Shown here piece after piece: positions 24,431 through 41,283 of a DNA stretch of 64,000 bases (its first letter is position 1; the number at the start of each line of letters is the position of its first letter). Position numbers and translations under genes: made by a program. Under the pieces are notes generated by a model. That model saw only the letters and a list, made by a program, of their open reading frames with translations, was not told the origin of the DNA and ran no database searches. Source of the DNA: Planctomycetota bacterium (GTDB taxonomy: Bacteria; Planctomycetota; B15-G4; JADJEK01); the NCBI GenBank assembly GCA_052034255.1, contig JBPOIU010000031.1:20355-84354 (forward strand), read 5' to 3'.

Positions 24431-24537
24431 GGATTCCTCGAAGGGGCGAGCGGAGCGATGCGTGCGGCAGGATGCGGCGTCGGCGCCGCCGCCGGCCGCT
24501 CATCGCGCGCCGTGGACGTCAAGGCAGGCGCGGGAGT

Positions 24538-26178
24538 CTACGGGCGGGTCGCCGTCGGTCCACCGGGTAGCGCGGCGGAGGGCGAACCGAGGCGTGGGAC
24601 GCGGAGGACCGGGAACTCTTCGCCTTCGCGCAGCCAGGGACCGAACGAGTTCCACGTCACGAGCCCGTCCTCGCATTGCGGCTCGAGCAGGATCACGCAC
24701 AGCGTGCCGAGCCGTTGCGCCAGATCGACGCGGATCCAACCCGCGGGAATGGTCCGTGTCGCCGCGATGGTCTCGGTGTCGACCGAGACCTCGTGATGAC
24801 CTTCGAACGGACGGCTCGCGGTCGTGACCTTCTTCACGATCTGGATCTCGACTGGCGTTTCGAGAGGCTGCTCCAAGCGCTCGAGGACCACGCCGTGCTC
24901 GCGCAGTTTCGCGATCACGGTCTCGCACTTCGGATCGATCAAGTACGCGCGCGGTCGTTCGACCGTCAGCGTGCCTTCGAAGTGGTCGTAGTGCAGGACC
25001 TCGACGTCGTGCGGTGTCGTCGTCGGATGCGTCTTGCCGTGTTCATCGGTCGTTTCGACGACGCCGAGGATCGTCACCGGCGCAGGGGCCGCCGCCATGC
25101 GCGTGCGGATCGGCACCGGATCGGATCCGTGCCGGGTCGCCTTCGCGATCGTCTCGGCTTCCGCGCGCGCGAGCGTGTCGTCGAGCGTCGCCCGCCAGTC
25201 GCAGGCCAAGTCCACGCACTCGCGCACGAACTCGAGCGTGACGTCGACGCGCGTCGCGAATTCCGCGTAGGCGTAGGCTTCCGACAGGATGCACGCGCGT
25301 TGACGCAGCCCGCGGTACGGGTCTCCGAAGCGGGGCTGCGACGAGTAGGTTTCCCACGCCACGCGCTTCGCGTCGAAATTGCCGTAGAAGAACGTCCGAT
25401 AGCCGGTCCGCTCGAACAGGCGCCGCGTGATCTCCGGCAGCATTCGCCCGCGCACGAGTTCTTCGAGCGGGCGTTCGGTCGCGGGGTGCAGCGGACCGTC
25501 GTACGTGAGTTCGTAGCGGTGGAAGCTGCCGTTCGTCGTGTGCGTGTCGATCGTCAACGCGGGATTCCAGCGGTCGTACAGCGCGGCCAACGCGCGCGAT
25601 TCCGGCGCTTCGAGCTTCACGTAGTCGCGATTGAGATCGAGACGCTGCGCGTTCGCTCGCTGTCCCATGCCGCGGATCGGCCCGATCTGTCCCGGGCGAT
25701 TGCCGACGTCGATGCGCTCGTTGCCGTCGGCGTTGTAGATCGGCGCGATCAGCAGCACGCATTGGTCGAGGATCGCGCGGTTGTCGCGATGGCGTGGGTT
25801 CAACAGCAGATCGCGCGCGAACATCAGCAGCGCTTCCTTGCCGCAGACTTCGCCCGCATGGATGTTGCCGAGCAACAGGATCACGAGCTTGTCCGCGTCG
25901 CGCGCCGCTTCGGGCGTCGCGCACGGCGGTTCCCCGATCACGAGCAACGGCAGCGGGCGGCCTTCGACGCTGACTCCGAAGTCCTCGCGGCGCGCGCGCG
26001 TGCGGTCGGTCGCGACCAAGCGATCGACCAACTCCACGACGTCGGCGTACAGCGCCGTCGCTTCGAAGTTCGTGCGTTCCGCGACGGTCCGTAGTTCGGG
26101 CGGCACTTCGACGCGCGGCGTCGAACACGCCGAGAGTGCACACGTGAGACCACCGACGACGAATCCGAGCCAACGCAT
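24538..26178 (-). CDS. M14 zinc carboxypeptidase-family lipoprotein
   Basis: LSAC lipobox; GNIHAGE, NADGNE, RANAQRLDLNRD, IDTHTTNG. Confidence 0.88.
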   Translation of the reverse strand: MRWLGFVVGGLTCALSACSTPRVEVPPELRTVAERTNFEATALYADVVELVDRLVATDRTRARREDFGVSVEGRPLPLLVIGEPPCATPEAARDADKLVILLLGNIHAGEVCGKEALLMFARDLLLNPRHRDNRAILDQCVLLIAPIYNADGNERIDVGNRPGQIGPIRGMGQRANAQRLDLNRDYVKLEAPESRALAALYDRWNPALTIDTHTTNGSFHRYELTYDGPLHPATERPLEELVRGRMLPEITRRLFERTGYRTFFYGNFDAKRVAWETYSSQPRFGDPYRGLRQRACILSEAYAYAEFATRVDVTLEFVRECVDLACDWRATLDDTLARAEAETIAKATRHGSDPVPIRTRMAAAPAPVTILGVVETTDEHGKTHPTTTPHDVEVLHYDHFEGTLTVERPRAYLIDPKCETVIAKLREHGVVLERLEQPLETPVEIQIVKKVTTASRPFEGHHEVSVDTETIAATRTIPAGWIRVDLAQRLGTLCVILLEPQCEDGLVTWNSFGPWLREGEEFPVLRVPRLGSPSAALPGGPTATRP

Positions 26179-26281
26179 GCGGCGCTCCGAGCGGTGAATC
26201 GACGAACGAGGGGAACGGGGGACGTTCGCGCCGACGCGTGTTGCGGGCGGTGACGGTGCGGACGTCGTTTCGGAACCGGCC

Positions 26282-26290
26282 CGCTATCAT
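26282..26290 (+). promoter_or_regulatory. -10 element cgcTATCAT
   Basis: Lies upstream of the hydrolase gene; shares the 13-mer tatcatccggccc with 12046. Confidence 0.45.
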
Positions 26291-26361
26291 CCGGCCCGGA
26301 TGCGCGGCTGCAAGCGTCGCGCGGATGCGTTCGCTCGGTCCCGGCGTGGCGGTGTCGTTCG

Positions 26362-27486
26362 ATGTACGTGCAGTTCCTCGGCATCGTCGTCGGAATCGGG
26401 ACGGGCATCTGGCTCGCGCTCGCGCTGTTGCTGTGGCTCGTGCTGCGTCTCGCGCACAAGAAGCCGCGGCGCTTCTGGTGGCCCGTGTTGGGCCTCGCGC
26501 TGGTGTTCATTCCGCTGCACGTGTTCGTGACCGCGCCCAACGCCGCCGCGTGGTTCGCGGTGCGGATGGCGCGAACGCGGGGCGACGAGATCTTCTACAC
26601 CGGGCCCAAGATCGCCGCGGACGGTCATTGGATCCTGCAGGAGCGTCGCAACTGGCGCGACGTGCCCGCCGACGCCGAGACCTCGCCGCGCGATCCGACC
26701 GAACCGCGTTCGCCGTACGAAGTGAACTTCGAGGCACGGGACGGCGTCGGCCTCCGAGGCTTCTTGGTGCTGCCCGCGCAGGCGCCGCCTCGGTTCGTCG
26801 CCGTGCTCGCGCATGGCTTGTGGCGCGGGGCGCTGGAGATCGAAACGGTCGGGGCGATGTTCCGCGAGCTCGGCGGCGCGGTCCTGCTGCTCGAAATGCG
26901 CAACCACGGCCGCAGTGAGCACGCGACGTTCACGTTCGGCGACCACGAGTCGTTCGACGTCGTCGCCGCGGTGTCGTTCGTGCGGGAGCGAGAGGACCTG
27001 CGCGATCTGCCGCTCGTGCTGTTCGGAGTTTCCCTGGGTTCGGCGGCCACGGCCCTCGCCGCGCCGCACGTCGATCGCTTGGCGGGGCTCGTCCTCGACG
27101 CGCCGATCGACTCGGTGGGCGCCGTCGCCGATCGCATGGTGAACGGCCGCCGCCGCTTCGTTCCGAGCTGGGCGTGGTCGGACCTGAAGCGCGCGCTCAG
27201 CCGGTGGTCGGAGACGTCGATCGACGACGTCGCGCCGAAGGTCGCTCTACGAGCGCTGGCGCCGGAGGTGCATGTGCTCGTGATCGGCGGAGCCGAAGAC
27301 GCGCGCTGTCCGCCGGAAGCGGCAGAGGCGGTGTTCGACGCGATTCCGACGCCCGCGACGAACAAGACGCTGTGGATCGAGCCCGACGCGGATCACGGCA
27401 AGGTGTGGCAGGTCGCGCCGGACAAGTACCGCGAACACCTGCGCGCGTTCATCGACGCGGTGTTGGCGGGTGCGCGACGACCTTGA
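26362..27486 (+). CDS. Membrane-anchored alpha/beta hydrolase
   Basis: Two N-terminal TM helices; LAHGL, MRNHGRSE, nucleophile GVSLG, D and H of the triad (GGAED, ADHG). Confidence 0.85.
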   Translation: MYVQFLGIVVGIGTGIWLALALLLWLVLRLAHKKPRRFWWPVLGLALVFIPLHVFVTAPNAAAWFAVRMARTRGDEIFYTGPKIAADGHWILQERRNWRDVPADAETSPRDPTEPRSPYEVNFEARDGVGLRGFLVLPAQAPPRFVAVLAHGLWRGALEIETVGAMFRELGGAVLLLEMRNHGRSEHATFTFGDHESFDVVAAVSFVREREDLRDLPLVLFGVSLGSAATALAAPHVDRLAGLVLDAPIDSVGAVADRMVNGRRRFVPSWAWSDLKRALSRWSETSIDDVAPKVALRALAPEVHVLVIGGAEDARCPPEAAEAVFDAIPTPATNKTLWIEPDADHGKVWQVAPDKYREHLRAFIDAVLAGARRP

Positions 27487-27538
27487 GCGCGGGCCGCGAG
27501 CGCACTCGGATCCCCGCGCGACGTCTCTTCCCGCTCCG

Positions 27539-28423
27539 TCAGCCGTAGCGAACGAGTGTTTCCTCGAGTCGCGTCTCGACGGCGCGCGCCGCGCTGGTCA
27601 ACAGCGCGGCATCGAGTCCGAGGCGGGCACAGGCCTCGCCGTCGAGCTCCGGGATCGTCGCTTGGTCCGTGGGACCGACGGTGCTGTGGTTCGAGAGGTT
27701 GCTCGCGACGTGCACCAGATCCGCGACCGCGAACACCTTGTCGTCGTGCGTCGCGCCGGCCGCGGCTTCCTGTTCGCGCGATCGACTCGGGTTCTCGTGG
27801 AAGCGGATGCCGATGACGATCGAGTCCGGCAGGCCCCAGCGTTGCGCGATCGTGCCACCGAGCGCTCCGTGACCGATGCCGAGGACCGCGGCTTCGGCCG
27901 CTTCGAAATCGAGTCCGGCTTCGGCGCGTGCCCGGTGCACCGATGCGGCCGTGTCGCGGTCGAGGAACCGATTCAGCACGAGCTTGCCGATGTCATGCAG
28001 CAGCGCGGCGGTGAAGGCCTCCGGCGGCAGCGAGACCTTGCGCACGAGCGGCTTCAGTACCTCGGCCGCGAGCGCCGCGGCCACCGAGTGCCGCCACAGT
28101 TCGCCTTCGCCGAGGCCGTAACCGGGCAGCGCTCCGCCTGCGGTGTTCTTCACCGAACTCGCCATCGCGAACGACAGCACGAGTCCCGATCCGAGCCTGA
28201 CCACCGCATCCTTGACCGTGCCGATCTGCGAGCGCGACGCGGACAGCGCCGAGTTCGCCGCCTTCAGCATCCGCGCCGTCAACGCTTGGTCGAGCTGGAC
28301 CACCTCGACGACTTCGCGCAGGTCGACGTCTTCCTTCGACACGATGGCCGTCAGGCGCGCGACGCTGGCCGGCAGCGGCTTCAGGGTTTGGGCGGAGGCG
28401 AGCACCGCGTCGAGGTCGAGCAT
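27539..28423 (-). CDS. HDOD domain protein
   Basis: LKPLP, DQALTARMLKAANSA, LWRHSVAAA, ALLHDIGKLVL, WGLP...IRFHENP. Confidence 0.9.
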   Translation of the reverse strand: MLDLDAVLASAQTLKPLPASVARLTAIVSKEDVDLREVVEVVQLDQALTARMLKAANSALSASRSQIGTVKDAVVRLGSGLVLSFAMASSVKNTAGGALPGYGLGEGELWRHSVAAALAAEVLKPLVRKVSLPPEAFTAALLHDIGKLVLNRFLDRDTAASVHRARAEAGLDFEAAEAAVLGIGHGALGGTIAQRWGLPDSIVIGIRFHENPSRSREQEAAAGATHDDKVFAVADLVHVASNLSNHSTVGPTDQATIPELDGEACARLGLDAALLTSAARAVETRLEETLVRYG

Positions 28424-28637
28424 GCGGCGGTTCCGTGGGCGGGTGGGAGGGGAGTGGCCGCGAGCGGGCGCACGCGGCGCGATCCCAGGGATCGCTTCCT
28501 GGATCGGCATTCGCCGAGGCGCACGTGCAGGCAAAAAGTGCCAACCGACGTCGCGCGCCGCGCCGTGCCGCACCGCATCCGGAGGCGACGCCTCGCTGCC
28601 AACCGCGGTCTCGACCGCTCGCTCGTGACTCGGCCGA

Positions 28638-29345
28638 TCACGGCTCGGGCGTCTTTGCGAACGGGTCGAGCGCGAGGTGCGTGAGGTCGACGGTGCATGC
28701 GCGCGCCTGCCGCAGCCGGTCGAGGTACGTGGCGCGCGCGATCGCGAACGCACCCATGCTGGCGAGATGCTCGGTGACGTATTGGACGTCGAACAGCCGG
28801 ATGCCGGCGCGAAACAGGCTGCGCACCGCCACGACCAACGCCACCTTCGACGCATCGGTGGCGCGATGGAACATGCTCTCCGCCGCGAACGCGGCTCCGC
28901 GTTGGACGCCGTACAGTCCGCCTGCCAATGCCGTGCCGCTCCACACTTCGATGCTGAACGCGTGTCCGAGGCGATGCAGCTCGACGTAGGCGGCCCGGAT
29001 TCCCGGCAGGATCCACGGGTCCGGGCGCCCCTCGGCACAGCCATCGATGACCGCCGGGAACGAGGTGTTCCAAGTCCAGCGGAACGTCGATCCGCGCAAC
29101 GTCCGCGCCAGGCGGCGGGACACATGCAGGCTCGCGGGGGTCACGATCGCGCGCGGATGCGGGGACCACCACAGGGGCGGCGAGTCCTCGCCGAAACACG
29201 GGAAGATGCCGTGGTCGTAGGCATCCAGTAGGCGCGATACCGACAGATCCCCGCCGTACGCGACCAATCCGTCGGCCTCGGCATGGCGCGGGTCCGGGAA
29301 TCCAGGCGCTCCACCGGCCGGCAAGAACCACGGCAGTGGTTTCAT
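28638..29345 (-). CDS. aat: Leucyl/phenylalanyl-tRNA--protein transferase
   Basis: AYGGDLS, YDHGIFP, WWSPHPRA, AGGLYGV, ESMFH, DASKVAL, LFDVQ. Confidence 0.93.
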   Translation of the reverse strand: MKPLPWFLPAGGAPGFPDPRHAEADGLVAYGGDLSVSRLLDAYDHGIFPCFGEDSPPLWWSPHPRAIVTPASLHVSRRLARTLRGSTFRWTWNTSFPAVIDGCAEGRPDPWILPGIRAAYVELHRLGHAFSIEVWSGTALAGGLYGVQRGAAFAAESMFHRATDASKVALVVAVRSLFRAGIRLFDVQYVTEHLASMGAFAIARATYLDRLRQARACTVDLTHLALDPFAKTPEP

Positions 29346-29468
29346 GCAATCCCCTCGAAGCTTGACCGGGCGCGGTTCGCGCAGTCGACTGTCGGCCGGG
29401 TGGGTGAAGCGTGCGGAGCCCGAGTCGGGCTCCGTCGTCGTGAAAGCGAGACCTTCGTGCGTCGAATC

Positions 29469-30716
29469 ATGGCGTGGAGCGCCGGAATCGTCATCGGCTT
29501 GTGCGGGCAGGCGTCCCGCGCGGTCGCCGCCGAGTTCACGGCCGGCAATCTGTTCTACACCGCGACTTCGGCCGATCTCGTCGTCGAGGTGGCGTCGAAC
29601 GGCACCGCGGTGAAGAGTTACGGACCTTTCGCCAACTTCGATCAGCCTGCTGACGTCGCGTTCGGCCCGGACGGACTCATGTACGTCGCGGTGCGGGGTT
29701 CGAACCGTGTGACGAAGATCGACGCGGGCGGCGCGGTCGTCGGTGCGGTTGGCACGACCTCGGGTTTGACGAATCCGGTCGCGGTCGCGTTCACGGCCGA
29801 CGGTCACCTGCTGGTCGCTTCCGAGAATCAAAACCTCGTCTACGAATACGATCGCAACGGCACGTTCCTGCGTTCCTTCGGCGCCGGCAGCGGACTCACG
29901 GTCCCGCGCGGGATCGCGGGGACGCCCGGGGGGCACGTCTTCGTGTCGTCGGCGGGCACCAACCGCGTGCTCGAGTTCGACTCTTCGGGCGCCTTGCTGC
30001 GCGAGCTCGGAGCGGGCTCGACGTTGGTCGCGCCCGCGCGCGTCGAGCTCGGCGCCGACGGCCGCCTGTGGGTCGCATCGCAGAGCTCGAGCGAAGTTCT
30101 GGCGTTCGATGCCGCGGGCGACGTCGTCGCGACCTTGGGCAGCGGTTCTCCGCTCGCTTCGCCGGTGCGCAGCGCGCGCGGCGCGGATGGTCGCCTCTAC
30201 GTCACCGACGCGGCGGCGGCGCGCATCGTCGTATTCGATGCGCTCGGCGCGCCGTTCTCGACGATCACCGGCCTGACGCAGGCGCCGTCCGGCCTCGCGA
30301 TCGCGCCGCAGCGCTTCAGCGTGACGATCAAGGGCAAAGCCGATCGCATCGGGCTGTCGACGGTCAACGTCAAGGAGACCGCGACGCTGTCCGTGCTGCC
30401 GGGCTCCGGGTTCGTCCAGATCGACCTGATCGACGACACGGGCACGGCGCTCGATCTCGCGACGCTGTTCGCGACGCGCACGTGGTCGGGGACGGGATTC
30501 GAACTCGCGCCGTCGCCGAAGCTGCGCACGCTGCAGTCGTTCGGCGTCGGTCCCGAAGCGCAGCAGACCGGCATCGCGACGTTCGCGCTGAAGCTGAAAG
30601 GCAAGACCGCGAGCACGGGCGCCTTCCGCGCCACGGGAGTGGCGGGCAGCTTCGCGTTCGCACGCGAAGGCCGCGCGTTCATCGGCGCCATCAAGTCGAA
30701 GAAGGCGCTCAACTGA
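29469..30716 (+). CDS. Secreted NHL-repeat beta-propeller protein with extra C-terminal beta domain
   Basis: Signal peptide; about 6 repeats of P-x-x-V-A-F-x-x-D-G-x-L-Y-V (PADVAFGPDG, PVAVAFTADG, PRGIAGTPGG). Confidence 0.8.
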   Translation: MAWSAGIVIGLCGQASRAVAAEFTAGNLFYTATSADLVVEVASNGTAVKSYGPFANFDQPADVAFGPDGLMYVAVRGSNRVTKIDAGGAVVGAVGTTSGLTNPVAVAFTADGHLLVASENQNLVYEYDRNGTFLRSFGAGSGLTVPRGIAGTPGGHVFVSSAGTNRVLEFDSSGALLRELGAGSTLVAPARVELGADGRLWVASQSSSEVLAFDAAGDVVATLGSGSPLASPVRSARGADGRLYVTDAAAARIVVFDALGAPFSTITGLTQAPSGLAIAPQRFSVTIKGKADRIGLSTVNVKETATLSVLPGSGFVQIDLIDDTGTALDLATLFATRTWSGTGFELAPSPKLRTLQSFGVGPEAQQTGIATFALKLKGKTASTGAFRATGVAGSFAFAREGRAFIGAIKSKKALN

Positions 30717-30738
30717 CGGACAGAGTGCTCGCCGCGGG

Positions 30739-31476
30739 TCACGCTCCCGACGGCGAGTGCAGGGCCGCGGCGAGCGCGAAGGCTCGCGGGAACAGCACGT
30801 TGTTCTCTTCGTGCATGTGTTCGAGCAGATCGGCTTCCATCGCGCGCAGCCCATCGACCCAGGCCCGCCAGGTCGCGCAGGCGTCGCTCGGCGCGCGGTA
30901 GCCGTTCGTCCCGCGGCGGAAGCGGTGGATCGCGTCGCCGGCGCGTTCGTGCTCGTAGCGCATCGCGGCGATCGGCCCGTCGATGCCGCAGTGGTGGATC
31001 CGACCGCCGCCGCGCGCGAGTCCCGCGATGGTCGGGAACAACACGATCTCCTCCTTCTGCATGTGCAGTTCGAGTTCGATCGCGAACTCCCGGAACTCGT
31101 TCTTCAGTTCGATGGTCTCCGGATGGCGCGCGCCGTGCGCGGCGGCGACCTTGTCCGCGAGCGCCGCGAGGCGCGGGAGTTCGCGACGCAGATAGGCGTG
31201 ATGCTGATCCAACACGTGCGTCAGCAGAGCCTCCGTCGTCGCGCGCGCGGCGTCGAACGTCGCGGGGACGGGGGTGTCGGCGTCGAGACGGCGCAACGCA
31301 TCGAGAACGACCGAAGGGTCGAGTTTCGCCTCGGCACAGGCCTCGGCCAGCGTCCGCCCACCGCCGCAACAGGCGTCGAGTCCGAACTCCATGAGGACGT
31401 GGAGTCGGTCGGAGCGCTCGAGGGCGAGGTCGCGCAGCGTGCGCGAGACCGAAGTCGAAGGAAGGTCACGATCCAT
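30739..31476 (-). CDS. ric: Iron-sulfur cluster repair di-iron protein (Ric/YtfE)
   Basis: DACCGG (ScdA N-terminal motif), QHHAYLR, HMQKEE..LFP, MRYEH, HMHEENNVLFP. Confidence 0.95.
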   Translation of the reverse strand: MDRDLPSTSVSRTLRDLALERSDRLHVLMEFGLDACCGGGRTLAEACAEAKLDPSVVLDALRRLDADTPVPATFDAARATTEALLTHVLDQHHAYLRRELPRLAALADKVAAAHGARHPETIELKNEFREFAIELELHMQKEEIVLFPTIAGLARGGGRIHHCGIDGPIAAMRYEHERAGDAIHRFRRGTNGYRAPSDACATWRAWVDGLRAMEADLLEHMHEENNVLFPRAFALAAALHSPSGA

Positions 31477-31522
31477 GGTTGCCTCCGCGGATGAATGAGC
31501 TTCGGCTCGTTGTGTCCCGAAG

Positions 31523-31553
31523 GTATTCGTAAATCACGGATTTCGAATACATC
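31523..31553. promoter_or_regulatory. AT-rich palindromic operator upstream of ric (Rrf2/NsrR-like half site ATACATCTT)
   Basis: gtattcg-t-aaatc-acg-gattt-cgaatac followed by atctt, in the divergent ric/recQ gap. Confidence 0.5.
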
Positions 31554-31647
31554 TTTGCGTGCGGCATGCGGCCGCGCGTGGCGGCCTGTCGCGGAGCACG
31601 GGCCCGGCGTTGAGGCCGGGGCCGGTCGGGGCAAGAATGGAGGATCC

Positions 31648-33375
31648 ATGGACGACACGGACGATCCCCTCCTCGCGGCGCTCGAGCGCCATTTCGGTCA
31701 CACGGCGTTCGTCGGTTGCCAACGCGCCGTCGTCGAACACGTGCTGGCCGGAAGGGATGCGGTCGTGCTGATGCCGACCGGTTCGGGGAAGTCGATCTGC
31801 TACCAACTGCCCGCGATGCTGCAAGCCGGCGTGACGGTGGTGTTGTCGCCGCTGATCGCGTTGATGCAGGATCAGGTCGAGAAGCTCACTCGGCGCGGCT
31901 TGCCGGCGACGTTCATCAATTCCGCGCTGTCGCGAGACGAGCGCGAACGACGCGTCGCGGCGCTCGCGCGCGGGGACTTCAAGCTCGTCTACGTGACTCC
32001 CGAGCGCTTCCGCAGTGACGCCTTCAGAGCGGCGCTGCTGCCGCAGCGCATCGCGTTGTTGGCGGTCGACGAGGCGCATTGCGTGTCGGCGTGGGGGCAC
32101 GATTTCCGGCCGGAGTACGGCAAGGTCGGCGAGATCCGGGCCGCACTGGGCGATCCGCCGACGCTCGCACTGACCGCGACCGCGACGCCGCGCACGCAGG
32201 AGTCGATCAAGGACACGCTGCGCATCCCGCAGGCACGGACGTTCTCGCTCGGCATCGAGCGCGCGAATCTCCGCGTGTTCGTGCGCGAGATCCACGGCGC
32301 CGACGAACGCGTCGCGCGCATCGCGGAGATCGCCACCACGCTGCGCGGTCCAGGCATCGTCTACATGGCGCTGATCCAAGAGCTGCAGCGCACCCAGGAG
32401 CGACTGCACGCGCTCGGCATCGAGGCGGACGTCTACCACGGCGACTTGTCGGCGTCGGAGCGACGGCGGGTGCTGCGGCGCTTCCTCGACGCTCGCGATG
32501 GTTTGCTGCTCGCGACCAACGCATTCGGGCTGGGTGTCGACAAGCCCGACATCCGCTACATCGTCCACGGTCAGGTGCCGGGCAGCGTCGAGGCGTACAC
32601 GCAGGAGATCGGTCGCGCTGGCCGCGACGGCGCGCTCAGCGCATGCGAGCTGCTGTACGACGTCGAGGACGTCGCCGTGCAGCAGCGCTTCGTCGAATGG
32701 GCGAACCCCGACGCGGAGTTCCTCCGCCGTGTGGTGGCGCAGTTGCTGGCGTGGGGCGACACGCTGCATGCGCGCGAGGCCGACGATCTGCGCGACGCGT
32801 TGCTGGTCAAGGCCCGCGGTGATGGTCGGGTCGAGACCGCCATCGCGTTGCTGCGCGCGGAGCGCATCGTCGACGGGACGTTCGAAGACCATTCACTGCG
32901 CGTGGTGCGGCCGCTGGCACCCGGGGAAGAAACCCGGATCGTCCCCGCGGGCAAGCGCGAGCGTGACCTGTCGCGACTGCTCGACGTCGTGCGCTTCGTG
33001 CGCGATGCCGGTTGTCGCAAGCGCGCGATCCACGCGTATTTCGGATTCGAGTCCGCGCCGGACTGGCGCTGCGACGCGTGCGATCTGTGCTGCGGAGCGG
33101 AGGCTTTCGCGGCAGGCATGGAGCGGCGTGGTGCGCACCAGTGCGGCGCGACCACGTTGCCCGCCGTCCCCGGAGCGGGTGCGGCACCGCCTGCCGCGCC
33201 GGTCGCGGTCGGGGATTGGTTGCGGATCGACGATCGGCACACGGTGGTCGTGACCAAGGTGGACACCGACGCGCGTGGCGTCCGGATCGAAGCGCAGAGC
33301 GCCGGCGATTTTCGCTTTCGCCGCTATGACCTGACTCGCGTGCGGTGGCAGTTCGTGCCGCGCGACGCCCCCTGA
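31648..33375 (+). CDS. recQ: RecQ-family ATP-dependent DNA helicase
   Basis: MPTGSGKSICYQLPA, YVTPERF, VDEAHCVSAWGHDFRPEY, ATNAFGLGVDKPDIR, QEIGRAGRDG, Zn site CRKR...CDACDLC. Confidence 0.93.
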   Translation: MDDTDDPLLAALERHFGHTAFVGCQRAVVEHVLAGRDAVVLMPTGSGKSICYQLPAMLQAGVTVVLSPLIALMQDQVEKLTRRGLPATFINSALSRDERERRVAALARGDFKLVYVTPERFRSDAFRAALLPQRIALLAVDEAHCVSAWGHDFRPEYGKVGEIRAALGDPPTLALTATATPRTQESIKDTLRIPQARTFSLGIERANLRVFVREIHGADERVARIAEIATTLRGPGIVYMALIQELQRTQERLHALGIEADVYHGDLSASERRRVLRRFLDARDGLLLATNAFGLGVDKPDIRYIVHGQVPGSVEAYTQEIGRAGRDGALSACELLYDVEDVAVQQRFVEWANPDAEFLRRVVAQLLAWGDTLHAREADDLRDALLVKARGDGRVETAIALLRAERIVDGTFEDHSLRVVRPLAPGEETRIVPAGKRERDLSRLLDVVRFVRDAGCRKRAIHAYFGFESAPDWRCDACDLCCGAEAFAAGMERRGAHQCGATTLPAVPGAGAAPPAAPVAVGDWLRIDDRHTVVVTKVDTDARGVRIEAQSAGDFRFRRYDLTRVRWQFVPRDAP

Positions 33376-33552
33376 ACCCGGCGTCGACTCGCGCCCTGCT
33401 TGGGCCTGTTCGACTCGACCGGCGGTGACACCAGCAGGCCGTATCACTGACGGAACTGCGTTCCACGCCGCAACTTCGGCCGCTCGAAGCGTGTCATCCG
33501 GAAAGATCCCGCAGAAACTTGGCGGACGGCTTCCGGAACTACCGTTTCAGCC

Positions 33553-33834
33553 GGTGCGGATTCGAATCGAGTGCTCTGAACCCGTCCAGCAGCGGGTGCC
33601 CAGCGGGAGCCCAATGGGAACCCACCGGGTGCTCAACGGGTTTGTAGTGGAACTCCGGGAATCGATGCTGTGTGGGGGGTATGGAGAGTCCGGGGGGACT
33701 CTCGAGGCGTCGGGTTCGGAGCACTCCCCTTTCGGTCCGCACGAGGAACTCCGGGGCGTGACTTCGGTCGCGCAAGAGCAGTGGGATTTGAGTTTTCCAG
33801 CCGAGCGGGCGCACGTCCGCTCGGCTGGTTTTTT
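33553..33834 (+). ncRNA. Candidate structured small RNA (about 190-nt rod plus UUCG hairpin; 6S-like size)
   Basis: 33569-33584 pairs with 33711-33726 (16 bp, one G-U); 33554-33560 with 33736-33742; hairpin 33684-33703; C(UUCG)G hairpin 33756-33773; TAnnnT at 33540. Confidence 0.5.
33797..33834 (+). terminator. Intrinsic terminator
   Basis: ccagccgagcgg / ccgctcggctgg 12-bp stem followed by TTTTTT. Confidence 0.85.
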
Positions 33835-33880
33835 CGTTTCGCGCAATTCCCAGCGTGTCGCGCGCCGGTGGTTCGCGCGA

Positions 33881-36646
33881 TCAGGTCTTGTAGGCCGAGT
33901 CCGCCGGACGCACGGCGCGGGCGAAGTGCAGCGGTCGGCGCAATCCGCCCGGACCCGGAGCGGGCCGCGCTTTCGCCAACCACTCGCGGTAGATCTGCAT
34001 CGACTTCGATGGATCGACTTCGATGTCGCCGTAGCGGTCGCCGGGCTTCGCCTTCTCGACCGTGACCTTCTGATGCCAGCAGTGCATGCCGGACACGGGA
34101 TCGGGTTGCACCGGGAACGTCGCGTTCTGGTGCACGCCACCATCGGTCCACCAGACGCGCTTGCTGTCGGGGTCCTTCGAATCGAACGGGCCGACGTCCG
34201 CCAGGCGCGTGAACTTGACGACGCCGTTGCCGGTCTGTTCGCGCTTCACGAGCGCGGATGCCCAACGATCCGTGCCGACTTCGTCGAACAGACGCCAGCG
34301 CCCCAAGTGGTGCGAGCACGCGACCACACCCGGCCGAATCCCCTCCGTCACCCACGCCTTGTTCACGAAGTAGCCGATACGCGTCGTCACGCGCACGAGA
34401 TCGCCGGTCTTCACGCCGACCCGCTCGGCGTCCTTGCGATGGATCCACACCGGATTCGTGTTCGAGAGTTCGACGAGCCACTTCGCATTCGCCGAGCGGG
34501 TGTGGATCAGCGTCGGCAATCGAAACGTCGGCACCAGCGCGAACTCACCGGCTCCTGAGTTCAAGTGGGCGCGATGCACGTGACTGCGGAGGTAGGTCGG
34601 CGTCGCGTATTCGGGCCAGCCCCAATCCGCGAGCGTCGGTGAGAACACTTCGAGGCGTCGCGACGGCGTGTTGAAGCCGGCCACGGGCTTCCCGTCGAGC
34701 AACACGCCGACGGTCTTGCCGCCCTTCGTCACGTCGCCGGTTTCGGTCGACACGTCGCATCCATCCAGCGCGATCGGCTTCTCGTGGGCGTTCCACGTGT
34801 CGCGCTCGATCTCGAACGCGCCGTAGCGGCGCATGTATTCGAGCGGCGTCAGGCCGACCTTCTGCGCGGCCGCCGGCAGGCCCGGCACCGAGTTCTCGAA
34901 CATCCAGCGGTAGTACTCGTGGATCGTGATCTTCTCGTTCTTGCGATACGGCGATTCGAAGTACTTGCGGATGCCGAGCGAGCCGTCGGGGTCGATCGCC
35001 CACGACAACTCGATCCAGAACTCGTCCTCTTCCCAGACCTCACCGGGGTTCGTTTCACGCGTCGTGTCGACGCGCTTGCCCTGACGTTCGAGGTAGGCGC
35101 GCACGACCGGCTGGCGGAAGCTGATCCACTTGCTCGAGTGGGTTTCCTGACTCATCACGTCGTGGCGCTCGGGCCCGAGCCCCATCGGCAGCACGTAGTC
35201 GGCGTATTGCGCGGTCTCGCTCCACACCGGCGTCAACGCGGCGTGCAGCTCGATCAACGACTCGTCCTTCAGCACCTGTTCCCACAACATGCCGTCGGGG
35301 TTCGTCCAGACCGGGTTGTAGACCCGCGTGAAGTACGCGGCGAGCTTGCCGCGACCTTCGAGCAAGAAGTGGGGCAGCAGGTACGACAGCTCGTGATGCG
35401 AGAGTGGCCACTCCTTCGGATAGAGCAGTTCGCTCCACACTTGCTGCGGCGATGGCTTCAGGAACGGCGCCGCGACGAACTTGTCCGACGTGTTGCAGTT
35501 CGTGCCGCCCTTGGCGTTGATCGCTCCGACCAACGTCGACACGAATGCCAGGCAGCGCGCGACCGCCCAGCCACCTTCGTTGCCGGACGCGGCGTTGCGC
35601 CAAACGTGCGATGCGAACGCCGACCCCGCGGCGCCGATCTCGCGCGCCACCGCGAGGATCGTGCCGCGCGGCACGCCGCATTCGGATTCCGCGGCATCGG
35701 GCGTGTACACGGCGTACTCCGCCTTCAGCGCATCGATGAACGCGTCGAACGTCGGCGCCTTGTCCGGGGCTTTGGCCGCGAGGTACGCGCGCCAGTTCGT
35801 CCACTGCCGCAGGTAGTCGCGGTCGATGCGATCTTCCGCGAGCAGCACGTGCGCGAACGACAGCAACAGGAACGCCTCGGTGCCCGGATGGGGCGCGAGC
35901 CAATAGTCGCCGACCGACGCCGTGTTCGACAGACGCACGTCGATCACCGCGATCTTCGCACCCTTCATCTTGCCGTCGATGATGCGCTGCGCGTGCGGGT
36001 TGAAGTAGTGGCCGGTCTCGAGGTGGCTCGAGAGCAGCAACATGAACTTCGCGTTCTCGTGATCCGGCGACGGACGGTCGGCGCCCATCGTGGTCGCGTA
36101 CCCGAGGCGCGCCGCGGCCGAACACACGTTCGTGTGGGAGTTGTGGCCGTCGACGCCCCAGCTTTGCAGCACGCGGTCCATGTAGCCGTCGTGCCCAGGG
36201 CGACCGACGTGATACATGACCTCGGTCTTGCGTCCGGCGGTCAATGCGTTGCGGATCTTCGTCGAGAAGACCTCGATCACTTCCTGCCACGAGCACGGCT
36301 CGAACTTGCCGCTGCCGCGCGGTCCGACGCGCTTCAGCGGGAACAGGATGCGCTCGGGATCCTGGATCTGGTTCAGCGTCGCCGGACCCTTCGCGCAGTT
36401 GCGGCCGCGTGATCCCGGATGGTGCGGATTGCCTTCGAGTTTGCGGATCGACAGGTCTTCCTTGTCGACGTACGCCATCAACCCACAGGCGGCTTCGCAG
36501 TTGAAGCACGTCGTCGGCACCAGCGCGTAATGGCGTTCGACCTTCTTCGGCCACGCCTTCGGGTCGTACTCGACCCAGTCGTCCCAGCGATCCTGCGGCG
36601 GGAACGACTCGAGCGGGGTCACGGTGATCGGTGCGGGTTCTTCCAT
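33881..36646 (-). CDS. Molybdopterin (Mo-bisPGD) oxidoreductase catalytic subunit, Psr/Arr/Ttr-like, no Tat signal
   Basis: TTCFNCEAACG...NCAKG [4Fe-4S] motif; SHTNVCS putative Cys ligand; C-terminal HTRSANA and VACSHHLG molydopterin-binding domain. Confidence 0.9.
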   Translation of the reverse strand: MEEPAPITVTPLESFPPQDRWDDWVEYDPKAWPKKVERHYALVPTTCFNCEAACGLMAYVDKEDLSIRKLEGNPHHPGSRGRNCAKGPATLNQIQDPERILFPLKRVGPRGSGKFEPCSWQEVIEVFSTKIRNALTAGRKTEVMYHVGRPGHDGYMDRVLQSWGVDGHNSHTNVCSAAARLGYATTMGADRPSPDHENAKFMLLLSSHLETGHYFNPHAQRIIDGKMKGAKIAVIDVRLSNTASVGDYWLAPHPGTEAFLLLSFAHVLLAEDRIDRDYLRQWTNWRAYLAAKAPDKAPTFDAFIDALKAEYAVYTPDAAESECGVPRGTILAVAREIGAAGSAFASHVWRNAASGNEGGWAVARCLAFVSTLVGAINAKGGTNCNTSDKFVAAPFLKPSPQQVWSELLYPKEWPLSHHELSYLLPHFLLEGRGKLAAYFTRVYNPVWTNPDGMLWEQVLKDESLIELHAALTPVWSETAQYADYVLPMGLGPERHDVMSQETHSSKWISFRQPVVRAYLERQGKRVDTTRETNPGEVWEEDEFWIELSWAIDPDGSLGIRKYFESPYRKNEKITIHEYYRWMFENSVPGLPAAAQKVGLTPLEYMRRYGAFEIERDTWNAHEKPIALDGCDVSTETGDVTKGGKTVGVLLDGKPVAGFNTPSRRLEVFSPTLADWGWPEYATPTYLRSHVHRAHLNSGAGEFALVPTFRLPTLIHTRSANAKWLVELSNTNPVWIHRKDAERVGVKTGDLVRVTTRIGYFVNKAWVTEGIRPGVVACSHHLGRWRLFDEVGTDRWASALVKREQTGNGVVKFTRLADVGPFDSKDPDSKRVWWTDGGVHQNATFPVQPDPVSGMHCWHQKVTVEKAKPGDRYGDIEVDPSKSMQIYREWLAKARPAPGPGGLRRPLHFARAVRPADSAYKT

Positions 36647-36719
36647 CGAGGACTCTCGTTGCGATGCGGGCGAACGGAAAGACCGGCGACCACGGAACCG
36701 TGCCGGCGGGATGGAGACG

Positions 36720-38195
36720 TCACGACAACGGGGGTAATTGGCCCGCGCGCACGAATGCGTGCTCGTGGAACAACAGGCCGAGGAACGCGAGCACGAACGC
36801 GATCGGCGGCACGAAGTGCGCGCCGAGTTGAGCGGCGAACACCAGTGCCAACCCGACCGCGAATGCCGGCAGTGACCACAGGCGGACTCGACCGAGGAAG
36901 CCCGCCGCTTGTCGCGCGTTCGCCGAACGATGGGGCAGCTTCCACTCGAGCAGGGCGACCATCGTGTGGACGAAGAAGCCACACCAGCCGACCCAAGCCA
37001 GCGTCGACAGCGTGCCCGCGAACGGCACGAACGCGAGGGCGCCGAGGAAGATGGCCTGACCGAGCAATTGCGGCAACAGCAGCGAGCCTTGCCACAGATC
37101 GCGGCCTTCGCACTGCTTGAACAAGAACGCCGTGTACGCGGCCGCTAGCGCGGCGAACGGCAGGTTCACCCAGCGCAGCGTGTCCGCGAGTTGGTCCTGT
37201 CCGAGCCAGCGCAAACCGAGGATCGCGGTCGTCAGCGTCGAGAACCCGATCAGGATCCATGCGCCGCGGACCAACCAGCTCTTCGTGTTCGGGCGCGTCA
37301 GCAGCGTCAAGAACTTCAGCGGGCGCGTCAGGTCCTCGACCAGCAAGAACGTCGTGATCCCCGTGAACGCGAGCGCGAGCAATTCCGGCAGGTACGCCTG
37401 CGCGAAGCCCCCGACGCCGAGCGCCGCGAGGAACGGCGCGAGCAGCGCGGCTCCTGCGGCGACGCCTTTCGTCACCAGGTACAGCGCGACCGCGAAGCCC
37501 CATTCGACGCGGTGGCCCGCGTCGAGCACGACGCGCGTGTGGTTCTTCGGCGCGACGTCATCGCGCGTCGGCCACGCCTCGGGCTTGTGCGGCGGACGGT
37601 CGGACCACAGGTACATCGACGGGCGCTCGGCGACTCCGGGTCGCAGGATGTCGGGGTCGTGTCCGAGGTAGTGGACGTTCGGCCCGGTGTTCTGTTCGGG
37701 GCGACGCACCTCGGTCGCGAACTCCTTCGTCATGCGAGCGATCTTCGACCCTGGATCGTGCAGGTCCCCCGGCACGATCGCTTGTTCGGGGCAGACGACG
37801 ACGCACGCCGGTTCGAGACCGACCTCGATGCGATGCGCGCAGTAGTGGCACTTCTCGACGTTGCCCGAGTCCTCGTTGAGATGGATCGCGTCGTAGGGAC
37901 AGGCCTGCATGCAGGCGCGGCAACCGATGCACGCGTCCTTGTCGATGTCGACGATGCCGTCCTTGCGCTTGTCGAGAGCCGTGACCGGGCAGATCGTCAC
38001 GCACGGCGCGTTCGTGCAGTGGTTGCAGCGCAACACCCCGAAGCTGCGTTTCACTTCGGGGAACTTGCCCGATTCGACGTACTTGACCCACGTGCGGAAG
38101 TTGCCGACGGGGACTTCGTTCTCGGACTTGCAGGCCACGGTGCAGGCGTGGCAGCCGATGCACCGCCGATGATCGATCAGGAAACCGTATTGCAT
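36720..38195 (-). CDS. Fused four-cluster FeS subunit + NrfD/PsrC-type membrane anchor
   Basis: CIGCHACTVAC, CNHCTNAPCVTICP, CIGCRACMQACP, KCHYC..CVVVCP; then WGFAVALYL, EDLTRP and about 8 TM helices. Confidence 0.9.
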   Translation of the reverse strand: MQYGFLIDHRRCIGCHACTVACKSENEVPVGNFRTWVKYVESGKFPEVKRSFGVLRCNHCTNAPCVTICPVTALDKRKDGIVDIDKDACIGCRACMQACPYDAIHLNEDSGNVEKCHYCAHRIEVGLEPACVVVCPEQAIVPGDLHDPGSKIARMTKEFATEVRRPEQNTGPNVHYLGHDPDILRPGVAERPSMYLWSDRPPHKPEAWPTRDDVAPKNHTRVVLDAGHRVEWGFAVALYLVTKGVAAGAALLAPFLAALGVGGFAQAYLPELLALAFTGITTFLLVEDLTRPLKFLTLLTRPNTKSWLVRGAWILIGFSTLTTAILGLRWLGQDQLADTLRWVNLPFAALAAAYTAFLFKQCEGRDLWQGSLLLPQLLGQAIFLGALAFVPFAGTLSTLAWVGWCGFFVHTMVALLEWKLPHRSANARQAAGFLGRVRLWSLPAFAVGLALVFAAQLGAHFVPPIAFVLAFLGLLFHEHAFVRAGQLPPLS

Positions 38196-38222
38196 CGAGG
38201 ATCCCGCCGGAGTGAGGGCGGG

Positions 38223-38231
38223 ACTTTAGCA
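38223..38231 (-). promoter_or_regulatory. Extended -10 (tgcTAAAGT) for the molybdoenzyme operon
   Basis: TGnTAnnnT about 28 nt upstream of the ATG at 38195. Confidence 0.5.
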
Positions 38232-38405
38232 GACCTTCTCGACGTGCCGTTCGCCAGCGGACGAAGAAGTCCGACGGCATGCGCCCGACGCGGACGGCCG
38301 CGGTGATCGACGTCGCGGCGTGCTGCGCGGGCCGGCTGCGATCCCTCGCGAAAGGTCGGTGCTGCCCGCTGGATTCACGTCGGCGAACTCGCGAGACTTC
38401 GGGCC

Positions 38406-39209
38406 ATGCCCGCCTTCCATGCCCCCGTGCTCGCGAACCGTGAACTCCCGCCGGATGCCGCCGTACTGACGGTTGCGGTGCCCGCGCACCTGACGGTCGA
38501 GCCGTTCCAGTTCGCGATGCTGTCGATTCCGGCCGACGCGAACTTCCCGTTCCTGCCGCGGCCGTTCTCGATCTACGACGCGCGGCCGGGCGAATGGGAC
38601 TTCCTGGTCAAGCGCGTGGGCCGCGGTACCGGAGGCCTTGCCGACGCGCGTCCCGGGCAATCGGTCTACGTCGCGGGCCCGGTCGGAAACGGCATCACCG
38701 CGTTGCCGCGCGACCGCCGTCCGATCGGCGTCGCGGGTGGCGTCGGGATCGCGCCGTTCCTCGCGCTGTATCGCGAGTGGATGGCGGGGCGAGTCGATCT
38801 CGGCGCGCAACGACCGCTGTTGCTGTTCGGTGGTCGAACGCGCGACATGCTCTACGACCTCGAACGCTTCACCGCTCTGCCGATCGAGGTGCGTTGCTCG
38901 ACCGACGATGGCAGCTTCGGAGTGCAGGGCCGCGTCACGGCGCTGCTCGAACGAGCGCTCGCCGAGGGTCCTGCCGACGTCCTGTGCTGCGGTCCCGATC
39001 CGATGATGGAAGCGGTCGCGGCGGTGAGCGCGCGATCGTCCACGCCGTGTCGGCTGTCGCTCGAGACGTTCATGGCGTGCGGCTACGGCGTCTGCAACGC
39101 GTGCGCCGTGATGGTCAAGGACGACCGCTATCCGCAGGGCTACCGCTACGACCGCTGCTGCGTCGACGGCCCGGTGTTCGACGCGACGACGCTCGTCCAC
39201 GCGCATTGA
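38406..39209 (+). CDS. pyrK: Dihydroorotate dehydrogenase electron-transfer subunit
   Basis: RPFSI, GPVGNG, GGVGIAP, CGPDPMM, ETFMACGYGVCNAC...CCVDGPVF [2Fe-2S]. Confidence 0.85.
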   Translation: MPAFHAPVLANRELPPDAAVLTVAVPAHLTVEPFQFAMLSIPADANFPFLPRPFSIYDARPGEWDFLVKRVGRGTGGLADARPGQSVYVAGPVGNGITALPRDRRPIGVAGGVGIAPFLALYREWMAGRVDLGAQRPLLLFGGRTRDMLYDLERFTALPIEVRCSTDDGSFGVQGRVTALLERALAEGPADVLCCGPDPMMEAVAAVSARSSTPCRLSLETFMACGYGVCNACAVMVKDDRYPQGYRYDRCCVDGPVFDATTLVHAH

Positions 39210-39413
39210 GGTCGACGACGGGCACGCGCGCGTCGTCGCCGCGTTTGGCGCGGCCGGTTCTCGGTGATCGACGGCGAACTTCTTTTTTCTCCGTCCAATC
39301 GGGCGCGTCGCGACATGTCCCCAATCGACGGGGCTCCACTCCGAGCCCCGACCCCGCAGGTCACTGCCGCCGTAGGACTTGGTGGCGTGTGCGCCCTACC
39401 CCCGAGGTTCTCC

Positions 39414-41258
39414 ATGAAACGTCATGTGCTTTCGCTCCTCGCCGCCGCAGCGATTCCGCTCGCGCCCGCAGCCGATGCGCGCCAGCTGTACTGGGCGACG
39501 TACGACTACCCGGTGCCATCGACGATCCCGACCAGCTCGGTGTCGTGGCGCAACGCCGCCGTCGGCGACTTCGACGGTGATCGCCACACCGACTTCGTCT
39601 CGCTCGTCATCGATCCGAGCACCGGAAGCGGTGAAGTCCTGTTCGTCCAAGCGCCCGACGTCTACCAGAGCCTGCATGCGGTGGGTTCGCGTACGGCGAC
39701 CGACCTCCTGACATGGACCGGCGCTGGCACCGACAAGACCGACGCGTTCCTGAGCGTTGGATCCCACGGCGCCTCGCTGTGGACGCTCGACACGAACGAT
39801 CAGATCGTGCCGACGACGATCGTCGGCAGTCCACTGACGGGAGCGAAGTTCATTCGCGGACCCGTCAGCGGCTCGGCGATTTCGACGCATGCCTTCGTCG
39901 TCGTCGGCAGCGACGCACGCACCGTCTACAAGCTCTATCGTTCGGGCGGTGCATGGACGACTTCGGTGATTCGGACCCATGCGTCGGACATCCTCGACGT
40001 CGAAGTCCTCGACTGGAACGGAACCGGGGACGCCGACATCGCGTTGATGACCGCCTCGAGCTTGACCGTCATCGACACCAGCAACACCGTATTGTCGACG
40101 GCCTCGGCGTCGGGCGTCTGCATCACGACCGTTCGACACAAGGGGCGCACCGGCGATCAACTCGCGTGGGTGACCAACGTCACTGGATCGTCGAATCAGG
40201 CGATTCACGTCGTCGGAGACGGCGTGACGGAGACGGGCATCGTCATCGGTCCGTTGGACGTCGCCGCGGTCGCGAGCGGTGACCTGGATGCGGACGGCGA
40301 TTCCGAGGTCTTGATCTCTCATCGATTCAGCGGCGATCAAGTGATCCTCGTCAACGTGTCGAGTTCGACCTCGAGCTCCGAGAGTTACTCGTGGAGCGCG
40401 TACGAGCTCTACACGCTCGCGGGCTACGGGGTGAGTTTCGCATCGAACGCGGCGACTCCCGTGATCGCCGACCTCGACGCCGACACCGACCTCGACGTCG
40501 CGATGCTGTGCCAACCGACGACGAAGCTCGAAGTCGCACGCAACCAGCGCATCGACGAGAACGACCTGCGCGTCCTTCCGATCGAGATCGAGAGCGACGA
40601 CTTGCCGCGCTTGACGGTCTACAACTACACGCAATCCGTTCGCATCCAATTGCCGCTCAAGGCGCCGCAGGTCTCGACATCGCGCGACGTCCTGGAAGTG
40701 AAGGCATGGATCAAGGCCGTCGGTGCGAGCGTGTCGCCGGAACTCGTCCACCACGAGACGATTTCGACCGGTGCATCCTGGTCGATCCCCGTGTTGTTCG
40801 ACGTGCTCGTGGAATCGGATTGGCAGCCGCTCGAGGGTGATCGTCTCTACGTCGAACTGCGCATGGTCGACGTCGACACCAACGGTGAATACGCGTCGAC
40901 CGGCCCAGTCGCGACGCTGGTCTGTGACGGCTCGGAGGACGGCTTCGAAGCCGATCAGGGCGCGTTCGAGAACCTCTACGGCAGCTCCGGTCCGCCCGTG
41001 TTCTCGGCGAGGTTCGTCGTGGATTCGGCGGTCGTGCCGTTCGATAGCGGCGATCCGAATCCGTACACGTCCGTGATGGCCGACTCGTCGATGTACCCAA
41101 ATGGGTGGGACTCGGACTATCTGTTCCAGCAACTCGACGAGGTCGTCGGCCTCGGCACGAAAAAGGGAGGAGCTGCGAGCGGCGGCACCTCGACGGTGCC
41201 GAACGTCGACCCGTTCGATCCGAACGGCCCGCCTCCCCCTCCGCCGCGCCGACCCTGA
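39414..41258 (+). CDS. Secreted FG-GAP beta-propeller protein with C-terminal beta domain and Gly/Pro-rich tail
   Basis: Signal MKRHVLSLLAAAAIPLAPAADA; GDFDGDRHTD, DWNGTGDAD, GDLDADGDSE, ADLDADTDLD; ends NGPPPPPPRRP. Confidence 0.8.
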   Translation: MKRHVLSLLAAAAIPLAPAADARQLYWATYDYPVPSTIPTSSVSWRNAAVGDFDGDRHTDFVSLVIDPSTGSGEVLFVQAPDVYQSLHAVGSRTATDLLTWTGAGTDKTDAFLSVGSHGASLWTLDTNDQIVPTTIVGSPLTGAKFIRGPVSGSAISTHAFVVVGSDARTVYKLYRSGGAWTTSVIRTHASDILDVEVLDWNGTGDADIALMTASSLTVIDTSNTVLSTASASGVCITTVRHKGRTGDQLAWVTNVTGSSNQAIHVVGDGVTETGIVIGPLDVAAVASGDLDADGDSEVLISHRFSGDQVILVNVSSSTSSSESYSWSAYELYTLAGYGVSFASNAATPVIADLDADTDLDVAMLCQPTTKLEVARNQRIDENDLRVLPIEIESDDLPRLTVYNYTQSVRIQLPLKAPQVSTSRDVLEVKAWIKAVGASVSPELVHHETISTGASWSIPVLFDVLVESDWQPLEGDRLYVELRMVDVDTNGEYASTGPVATLVCDGSEDGFEADQGAFENLYGSSGPPVFSARFVVDSAVVPFDSGDPNPYTSVMADSSMYPNGWDSDYLFQQLDEVVGLGTKKGGAASGGTSTVPNVDPFDPNGPPPPPPRRP

Positions 41259-41283
41259 TCGACGATTTGGAGCGCGAGCGGCC

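Follow-up and report, generated by a model that had tools for sequence, protein, structure and literature searches.

Between a recQ-like helicase gene and a convergent molybdoenzyme operon, this planctomycete genome carries a structured RNA element of roughly 330 bases on the plus strand (about 33499-33834 of the window, the term used here for the whole stretch of 64,000 nucleotides that was analyzed). The element is conserved, non-coding, and restricted to one uncultured planctomycete genus; it belongs to no described RNA family and is not a 6S RNA. The reading we prefer, tentatively and with slightly less than even confidence, is that this genus-restricted RNA domain is transcribed as the 3′ untranslated region (UTR) of recQ, ends at a terminator of its own, and probably gives rise to a stable RNA. 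To our knowledge, almost nothing is known about regulatory RNAs in the Planctomycetota, and the element is a concrete candidate with comparative support, whose boundaries, strand, and core structure are defined; an uncultured host and a tiny family of four lineages limit its practical weight.

Locus and architecture of the element

The gap that holds the element measures 505 bp (33376-33880), from the end of the recQ-like open reading frame (ORF) at 33375 to the end of the minus-strand molybdopterin oxidoreductase ORF at 33881. Both its size and the lack of a credible coding sequence agree with the initial annotation of this DNA, and no reading frame in it is conserved in homologues. The recQ-like product contains the Pfam domains DEAD, Helicase_C, and RecQ_Zn_bind; its called start is probably at 31648, giving 575 amino acids, and the 575-aa called RecQ product (P0001) is 100% identical to the recQ product of the window. 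No sense-strand gene follows the element, the next gene being convergent, with its stop codon 46 nt past the T tract of the terminator. The features of the locus are as follows.

31495-33375, plus strand: RecQ-family helicase gene (longest ORF), directly upstream of the element on the same strand
33376-33498, plus strand: non-conserved spacer from the recQ stop codon to the element, without a terminator or a promoter-like site
33499-33517, plus strand: conserved A-rich block GGAAAGAUCCCGCAGAAAC (GGAGAAAAACGnGAGAAUC in other lineages), just 5′ of the structured part
33519-33548, plus strand: invariant 5′ segment UUGGCGGACGG followed by GGAACUACCGUUUC, the latter being the 5′ arm of a candidate closing stem
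33556-33590, plus strand: 5′ strand of the long rod, pairing with 33707-33740
33593-33641, plus strand: insert of the window's own lineage (G000), 4.5 tandem copies of the 11-nt unit CGGGTGCCCAA (Tandem Repeats Finder)
33650-33659, plus strand: motif copy 1, GAACUCCGGG, in the apical junction; invariant in all lineages
33674-33703, plus strand: G-rich apical part, with an invariant GGGGGG at 33674-33679 and a hairpin at 33684-33703
33707-33740, plus strand: 3′ strand of the long rod, pairing with 33556-33590
33746-33755, plus strand: motif copy 2, GAACUCCGGG, in the basal junction between the rod and the 7-bp hairpin; invariant
33756-33773, plus strand: 7-bp hairpin GCGUGAC-UUCG-GUCGCGC, with 100% of cells paired
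33777-33796, plus strand: conserved 3′ segment AGCAGUGGGAU...GAGUUUU, 3′ arm of the candidate closing stem
33797-33834, plus strand: intrinsic terminator, with a 14-bp GC-rich stem, a 4-nt loop, and a T6 tail
33881-36982, minus strand: convergent molybdopterin oxidoreductase gene (Pfam Molybdop_Fe4S4, Molybdopterin, Molydop_binding)

The core of the element is a near-continuous 27-bp rod, in which 33556-33565 pairs with 33732-33740 (9 bp) and 33569-33586 with 33709-33726 (18 bp), and in this form the long-range rod proposed from the single sequence is confirmed. Two further features reported at that stage were also found, namely the 8-bp internal hairpin, GAGAGUCC-GGGG-GGACUCUC, at 33684-33703, and the repeated ggaactccggg, which starts at 33649 and at 33745, although the GGA that precedes the GAACUCCGGG motif is not conserved. 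The C(UUCG)G hairpin fared less uniformly: its 7-bp stem is present and conserved, but the UUCG loop is not, being replaced by CUCG, CUCG, or a 6-nt loop in homologues.

A candidate closing stem joins 33535-33548 to 33776-33789 (alignment pairs 1-13 with 268-280 in RNAalifold, mostly invariant with some mismatches) and is also formed in the minimum free energy (MFE) folds of the homologues G001 and G002, introduced below; its columns hardly vary and therefore lend it little support. In the modeled helix 4, motif copy 1 (33650-33659) may pair with the G run at 33689-33695, a region in which the G000 row of the alignment is misaligned. Motif copy 2 (33746-33755) is unpaired in most predicted folds, and its GAACUC could alternatively pair with GAGUUU at 33790-33795, all of these bases being invariant. 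Invariant stretches are found at the junctions: at either end of the rod a copy of GAACUCCGGG, and in addition GGGGGG, GCUCUCG, and AGCAGUGGGAU.

Lineages differ mainly in inserts. The CGGGTGCCCAA tandem array folds into an extra hairpin of its own and is missing from G001, G002, and a further lineage, L259, which carries its own insert of about 45 nt, predicted to form a hairpin, in the region of the 3′ strand of the rod (L259:4540-4600; Logan SRR25822370). A partial third copy of the motif, GAACUCCGGGAACUCGAG, occurs in G002 and L259. The length of the element accordingly ranges from about 270 to 350 nt (272-347 nt).

Homologues and conservation

The element is single-copy in its own genome, as judged by BLAST, by an nhmmer profile, and by a covariance model that gave one real match; REP and MITE families, which are defined by many copies per genome, were set aside on this ground. 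Homologues are present in both other species of the genus in the genome collection, G001 and G002, the latter a Planctomycetota metagenome-assembled genome (JADJEK010000007.1). Exact-protein look-ups with RecQ added seven contigs at the strain level, L259 as a fourth lineage, and L260, a near relative of G001, and the order recQ, element, and convergent molybdoenzyme gene is kept in all four lineages. DNA sequencing runs in which the locus is present include SRR14234029, SRR28520263/282/285/287/290, SRR28715703, SRR25822370, and SRR14787578. Searches by other routes extended this set no further: a search with the C-terminal fragment of the molybdoenzyme gave no further genus-level contigs, and in scans of genome and metagenome contigs for GAACTCCGGG-N70-100-GAACTCCGGG, too loose a pattern, L108 (identical with G002) was the only real hit among the loci screened from the matches listed, at least 120 in each scan.

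Between lineages, the element is 57-74% identical with large indels counted, while the adjacent spacer is 26-51% identical, which is about random. The figure for the element is comparable to that for the third codon positions of recQ (51-68%) and close to the overall nucleotide identity of recQ, and the density of strain-level single-nucleotide polymorphisms, being equal in the element and the flanking genes, is uninformative. In the alignment, conservation between lineages starts abruptly at the A-rich block (33499-33517), about 20 nt before the invariant UUGGCGG.

The indels among homologues, of 1, 43, and 45 nt, mean that no reading frame is conserved. A small peptide was considered and rejected, since the frames opened in every lineage by an AUG at 33665 are shifted apart by the 1-nt indel.

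Folding, covariation, and strand

The plus strand of 33519-33834 folds at -162.6 kcal/mol (z = -5.2), and none of 100 dinucleotide shuffles folded as well. For the homologues, the z score was -4.1 in G002 and only -1.6, marginally better than shuffles, in G001. Across six distinct sequences, standard pairs occupied 94.6% of the pair cells. Compensatory changes in homologues, on which the initial annotation had made its structured RNA depend, were found on both sides of 8 pairs, against 0-1 when the 3′ partners were slid by 1-3 columns. Helices 1-3, which form the rod, were 89-98% paired and held 7 pairs with compensatory changes; the terminator stem likewise shows such changes between lineages. 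Support from covariation comes mainly from the rod and the terminator, the columns of the apical domain and the closing stem being nearly invariant. Because the six sequences represent no more than four independent lineages, in an alignment that was itself fitted to the model, we regard this support as moderate, not strong.

Several observations place the RNA on the recQ strand, convergent with the molybdoenzyme operon: (i) homologues together show 37 G-U cells versus 4 A-C cells, which upholds the earlier remark that G-U pairs favor the plus strand; (ii) the three variable positions of the 7-bp hairpin are all one-sided C-to-U changes on the 5′ arm, which keep the pairing on the plus strand only; (iii) the plus-strand fold is the more stable, the MFE of the minus strand being 22 kcal/mol weaker; and (iv) a U tract follows the terminator hairpin on the plus strand only, with AAAACUC in that place on the minus strand. 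The same observations bear on the idea that the functional strand is the minus strand, as the 3′ UTR of the molybdoenzyme operon, or that the element acts at the DNA level as a palindromic repeat or MITE remnant. The minus strand does fold well (z = -5.6), as any long inverted repeat would, yet on that strand the 37 G-U cells turn into A-C mismatches, 28 molybdoenzyme orthologue loci in other genomes have nothing like the element downstream, and a DNA-level element sits poorly with a single copy and no paralogues in the genome. Taken as a pair, these readings are highly improbable.

Comparison with 6S RNA and other families

The initial annotation suggested either a divergent 6S RNA or a new class of small RNA (sRNA), and proposed a search of Rfam. 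At the gathering score, this search gave no family in the region of the element and no 6S RNA (RF00013, gathering threshold 46.4 bits) anywhere in the window; a permissive search of 33300-33950 at E ≤ 10 returned four weak matches, driven by the terminator hairpin and none of them 6S. A canonical 6S gene lies elsewhere in the same genome (C103:18898-19086, equivalent to L007:1501-1689; 51 bits), with a TTGCAC-N17-TACTCT promoter, a CCGCCGG discriminator, and a U-tailed terminator with a UUCG loop. 6S RNA was also found in G002, G003, G005, and G007, and none was seen in G001, which is only 84% complete.

The resemblance that prompted the suggestion is real to the extent that the element is non-coding, broadly rod-like with a long irregular helix, and ended by a terminator, as 6S RNA is. 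Unlike 6S RNA, however, its fold has no central bubble, consisting instead of the near-continuous 9- and 18-bp rod, an asymmetric basal three-way junction, and a branched G-rich apex, so that the doubt already voiced about a missing bubble is shared by the predicted and comparative structures. It is also longer (270-350 nt versus about 185 nt), fails the RF00013 model even at E ≤ 10, and would have to exist beside a promoter-bearing canonical 6S gene. A divergent 6S RNA, or a 6S paralogue that binds the RNA polymerase holoenzyme, is therefore rejected as scarcely credible. The second suggestion stands in part, in that the element is conserved, structured, plus-strand, non-coding, and without an Rfam family; the independent transcription that an sRNA gene implies is unsupported.

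A riboswitch or cis-regulatory leader was likewise discarded, there being no Rfam aptamer match and the following gene being convergent. A literature search on planctomycete sRNAs and 6S RNA gave nothing relevant. As a side observation on the RNA genes of this genome, ARAGORN reported a standard tmRNA at C86:17096 and a second, permuted "tmRNA*" at C231:159319, which may be a false positive.

Transcription of the element

In this genome, an obvious cTTGnn-N17-TAnnnT promoter followed by a GC-rich discriminator precedes the 6S gene and about 25 tRNA genes. (At the tRNA genes, the -10 box is often TAGAnT or TAACAT and the discriminator CCCGC(C/G)CTTC, which makes a useful standard for judging promoters in this lineage.) No TTGnnn-N16-18-nAnnnT was present in the 400 nt before the element in any of the four lineages. 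The TAnnnT at 33540-33545 (TACCGT), singled out earlier at the 5′ end of the rod, reads TGCCGT, AGCCGT, or CGCCGT in the other lineages; this lack of conservation and its place within a conserved stretch that is probably base-paired mean that it is no promoter element.

At the 3′ end, the strong U-tailed terminator described from the single sequence is plainly there: at 33797-33834, a GC-rich hairpin (33797-33828; 11 G-C pairs in the 14-bp stem) is followed by T6 on the transcribed strand. It is the only strong intrinsic-terminator-like site in 24000-43999, where most genes seem to lack canonical intrinsic terminators, and a scan of 33376-33796 gave no terminator-like site. Since no terminator intervenes, transcripts of recQ should run through the element and stop at 33834. 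This, together with the lack of a sigma-70-type promoter, makes a 3′ UTR of recQ the most likely origin of the RNA. Of the independently terminated RNA that was first proposed, the termination holds, and transcription of its own is unsupported, for want of a sigma-70-type promoter and of a recQ terminator before the element.

The main competitor, which we consider a good deal less likely and still worth weighing, is a stand-alone sRNA gene that would start at about 33515-33520, be transcribed from a promoter in the A-rich block, and yield a trans-acting RNA of about 315 nt. A -10-like nAGAAT lies in this block, 1-7 nt before the first invariant bases, and would have to be recognized without a -35 box or by an alternative sigma factor. 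Such a start fits the abrupt onset of conservation about 20 nt before UUGGCGG, the apparent use of GAGAAT or CAGAAT as a -10 box by two tRNA genes of this genome, and a strong, sRNA-like terminator resembling that of the 6S gene. It is harder to square with the lack, in every lineage, of a -35 TTG at 16-18 nt, which the tRNA and 6S promoters do have, and with the hexamer itself, whose critical A2 and T6 are kept in only two of the four lineages (it is CAGAAA in G000 and AGGAAT in L259); transcripts of recQ would, moreover, enter the element anyway, as no recQ terminator precedes it. A promoter within the block, weak or serving another sigma factor, is possible, and the block could be either a single-stranded leader, a processing site, or a weak -10-like box. 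By eye, sigma-54 and ECF-type promoters were tried in this block and rejected, the GG/GC spacing being one base short and L259 having no GG.

The terminator could also be conditional. In a signal-responsive attenuator, UUGGCGG at the 5′ end of the element would pair with the 5′ arm of the terminator, CCAGCCGAG, and so allow antisense read-through into the molybdoenzyme operon, in the manner of riboswitch-controlled antisense RNAs. All lineages retain an 8-bp complementarity between these two segments, the terminator stem varies in its distal part and is conserved at its base, and the molybdoenzyme stop codon is only 46 nt further on. We nevertheless regard this as very unlikely: where one would expect covariation, G001 shows a mismatch; the alternative pairing is much less stable than the 14-bp terminator stem; the element matches no aptamer family; and all the segments involved are invariant.

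Possible fate and function of the RNA

In the recQ 3′ UTR reading, which we continue to favor, recQ and the element would be co-transcribed, the element forming a long 3′ UTR that ends at its own intrinsic terminator. The 27-bp rod and the terminator would together act as a nuclease-resistant 3′ block, so that a stable 3′-UTR-derived RNA of about 270-350 nt, depending on the lineage, would probably be left or released, possibly by processing in the A-rich block at about 33499-33517. RNAs of this origin are known from enterobacteria, where CpxQ, SdhX, DapZ, and SroC are about 60-110 nt long. The element resembles them in lying on the same strand directly after a coding sequence, with no intervening terminator and alike in four lineages, in using the intrinsic terminator of that gene, in being more conserved than the spacer before it, and in having an A-rich single-stranded stretch ahead of the structure. 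It differs in being several times longer (270-350 nt), in its dominant 27-bp rod, in the lack of a detected Hfq, and in a processing step and trans target that are only putative.

The invariant sequences lie in the junctions and not in the helices, which suggests a sequence-specific partner, whether RNA or protein. Through its CUCC core, the repeated motif could base-pair with ribosome-binding sites of the type GGAG, without Hfq or CsrA. A comparable case is icaR of Staphylococcus aureus, whose long regulatory 3′ UTR acts through a C/U-rich motif resembling an anti-Shine-Dalgarno sequence. The element is likewise a long structured 3′ UTR with a CUCC motif able to pair with GGAG; unlike in icaR, its complementarity to the recQ ribosome-binding site (GGAGGA) extends over only about 5 bp, no better than a generic Shine-Dalgarno/anti-Shine-Dalgarno match, and an interaction between the 5′ and 3′ ends of the mRNA would be hypothetical. 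A target search for CCCGGAGUU(C) near start codons of the same genome gave only noise and is uninformative, because the 9-mer commonly occurs as a string coding for Pro-Glu-Phe and, with a GC content of 68%, long spurious ORFs are plentiful.

Hfq was not detected in this 94%-complete genome, either with PF17209 or by tblastn with the Escherichia coli protein; CsrA was unmatched with PF02599, and ProQ and FliW gave no tblastn match. Classical chaperone-dependent or Csr-sponge mechanisms are therefore disfavored. With CsrB and RsmZ, the element shares the repetition of a short invariant motif in junction or loop positions (two copies, and the partial third in G002 and L259); in contrast to them, the motif is GAACUCCGGG and not A(N)GGA, there are only 2-3 copies, and no CsrA was detected.

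A more ambitious proposal, which we rate as improbable, makes the element a large riboregulator class tied to RecQ that binds a partner or senses a signal, working either as a decoy for the helicase or as an antisense read-through switch. In either form, the rigid rod would act as a spacer of about 27 bp between two identical, invariant GAACUCCGGG sites. As a decoy, the G-rich apex RNA would offer the co-transcribed helicase a G-quadruplex or a single strand; as a switch, the RNA would be extended by read-through into the convergent molybdoenzyme operon as an antisense RNA. RecQ-family helicases unwind G-quadruplex structures. A canonical G-quadruplex motif is present in the apical region of G001/L260, G002, and L259 and absent from G000, and such motifs are rare in this genome, with 312 in 5.56 Mb, or one per 18 kb, despite a GC content of 67.6%.

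Distribution and origin

A covariance model of 193 positions, covering the rod, the apex, motif copy 2, and the hairpin, scored members of the genus at 159-184 bits. Nothing credible was found with it in the other 39 of the 42 genomes of the order, and it gave no match in an even sample of 401 Planctomycetota genomes, where filtering was stricter and scoring was confined to the best candidates. No homologue of the element occurs downstream of recQ in six further genera of this family. Orthologues of the molybdoenzyme are common in the phylum (134 of the 401 genomes).

The order of genes around recQ differs between this genus and its relatives. Among the five other genera of the family with a readable downstream region, three (G009, G008, and G004; L268, L269, and L272) have a co-directional pyrK-like gene about 60 nt after recQ, and the remaining two have different genes there. 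In the present genus, the element and a reversed two-gene molybdoenzyme operon sit between recQ and pyrK, a separation that suggests an insertion or rearrangement at this point.

That the element is present only where a convergent operon separates recQ from pyrK, and that it supplies the sole strong terminator in 20 kb, is also what one would expect of a purely cis-acting 3′ end, which would protect the recQ mRNA from 3′ exonucleases and insulate the convergent units from each other, with no function in trans. An insulator needs a terminator only, however, and would leave about 280 nt under selection unaccounted for, as it would the invariant unpaired sequences of 10-11 nt that occur twice and the compensatory changes that preserve the rod. 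For this reason, we think such a restricted role unlikely.

The distribution of the element within a single genus, together with the changed gene order, indicates that it is young and arose with or after the rearrangement. A recent origin tied to a change in gene order makes the locus a possible example for studying the birth of a long structured 3′ UTR or sRNA.
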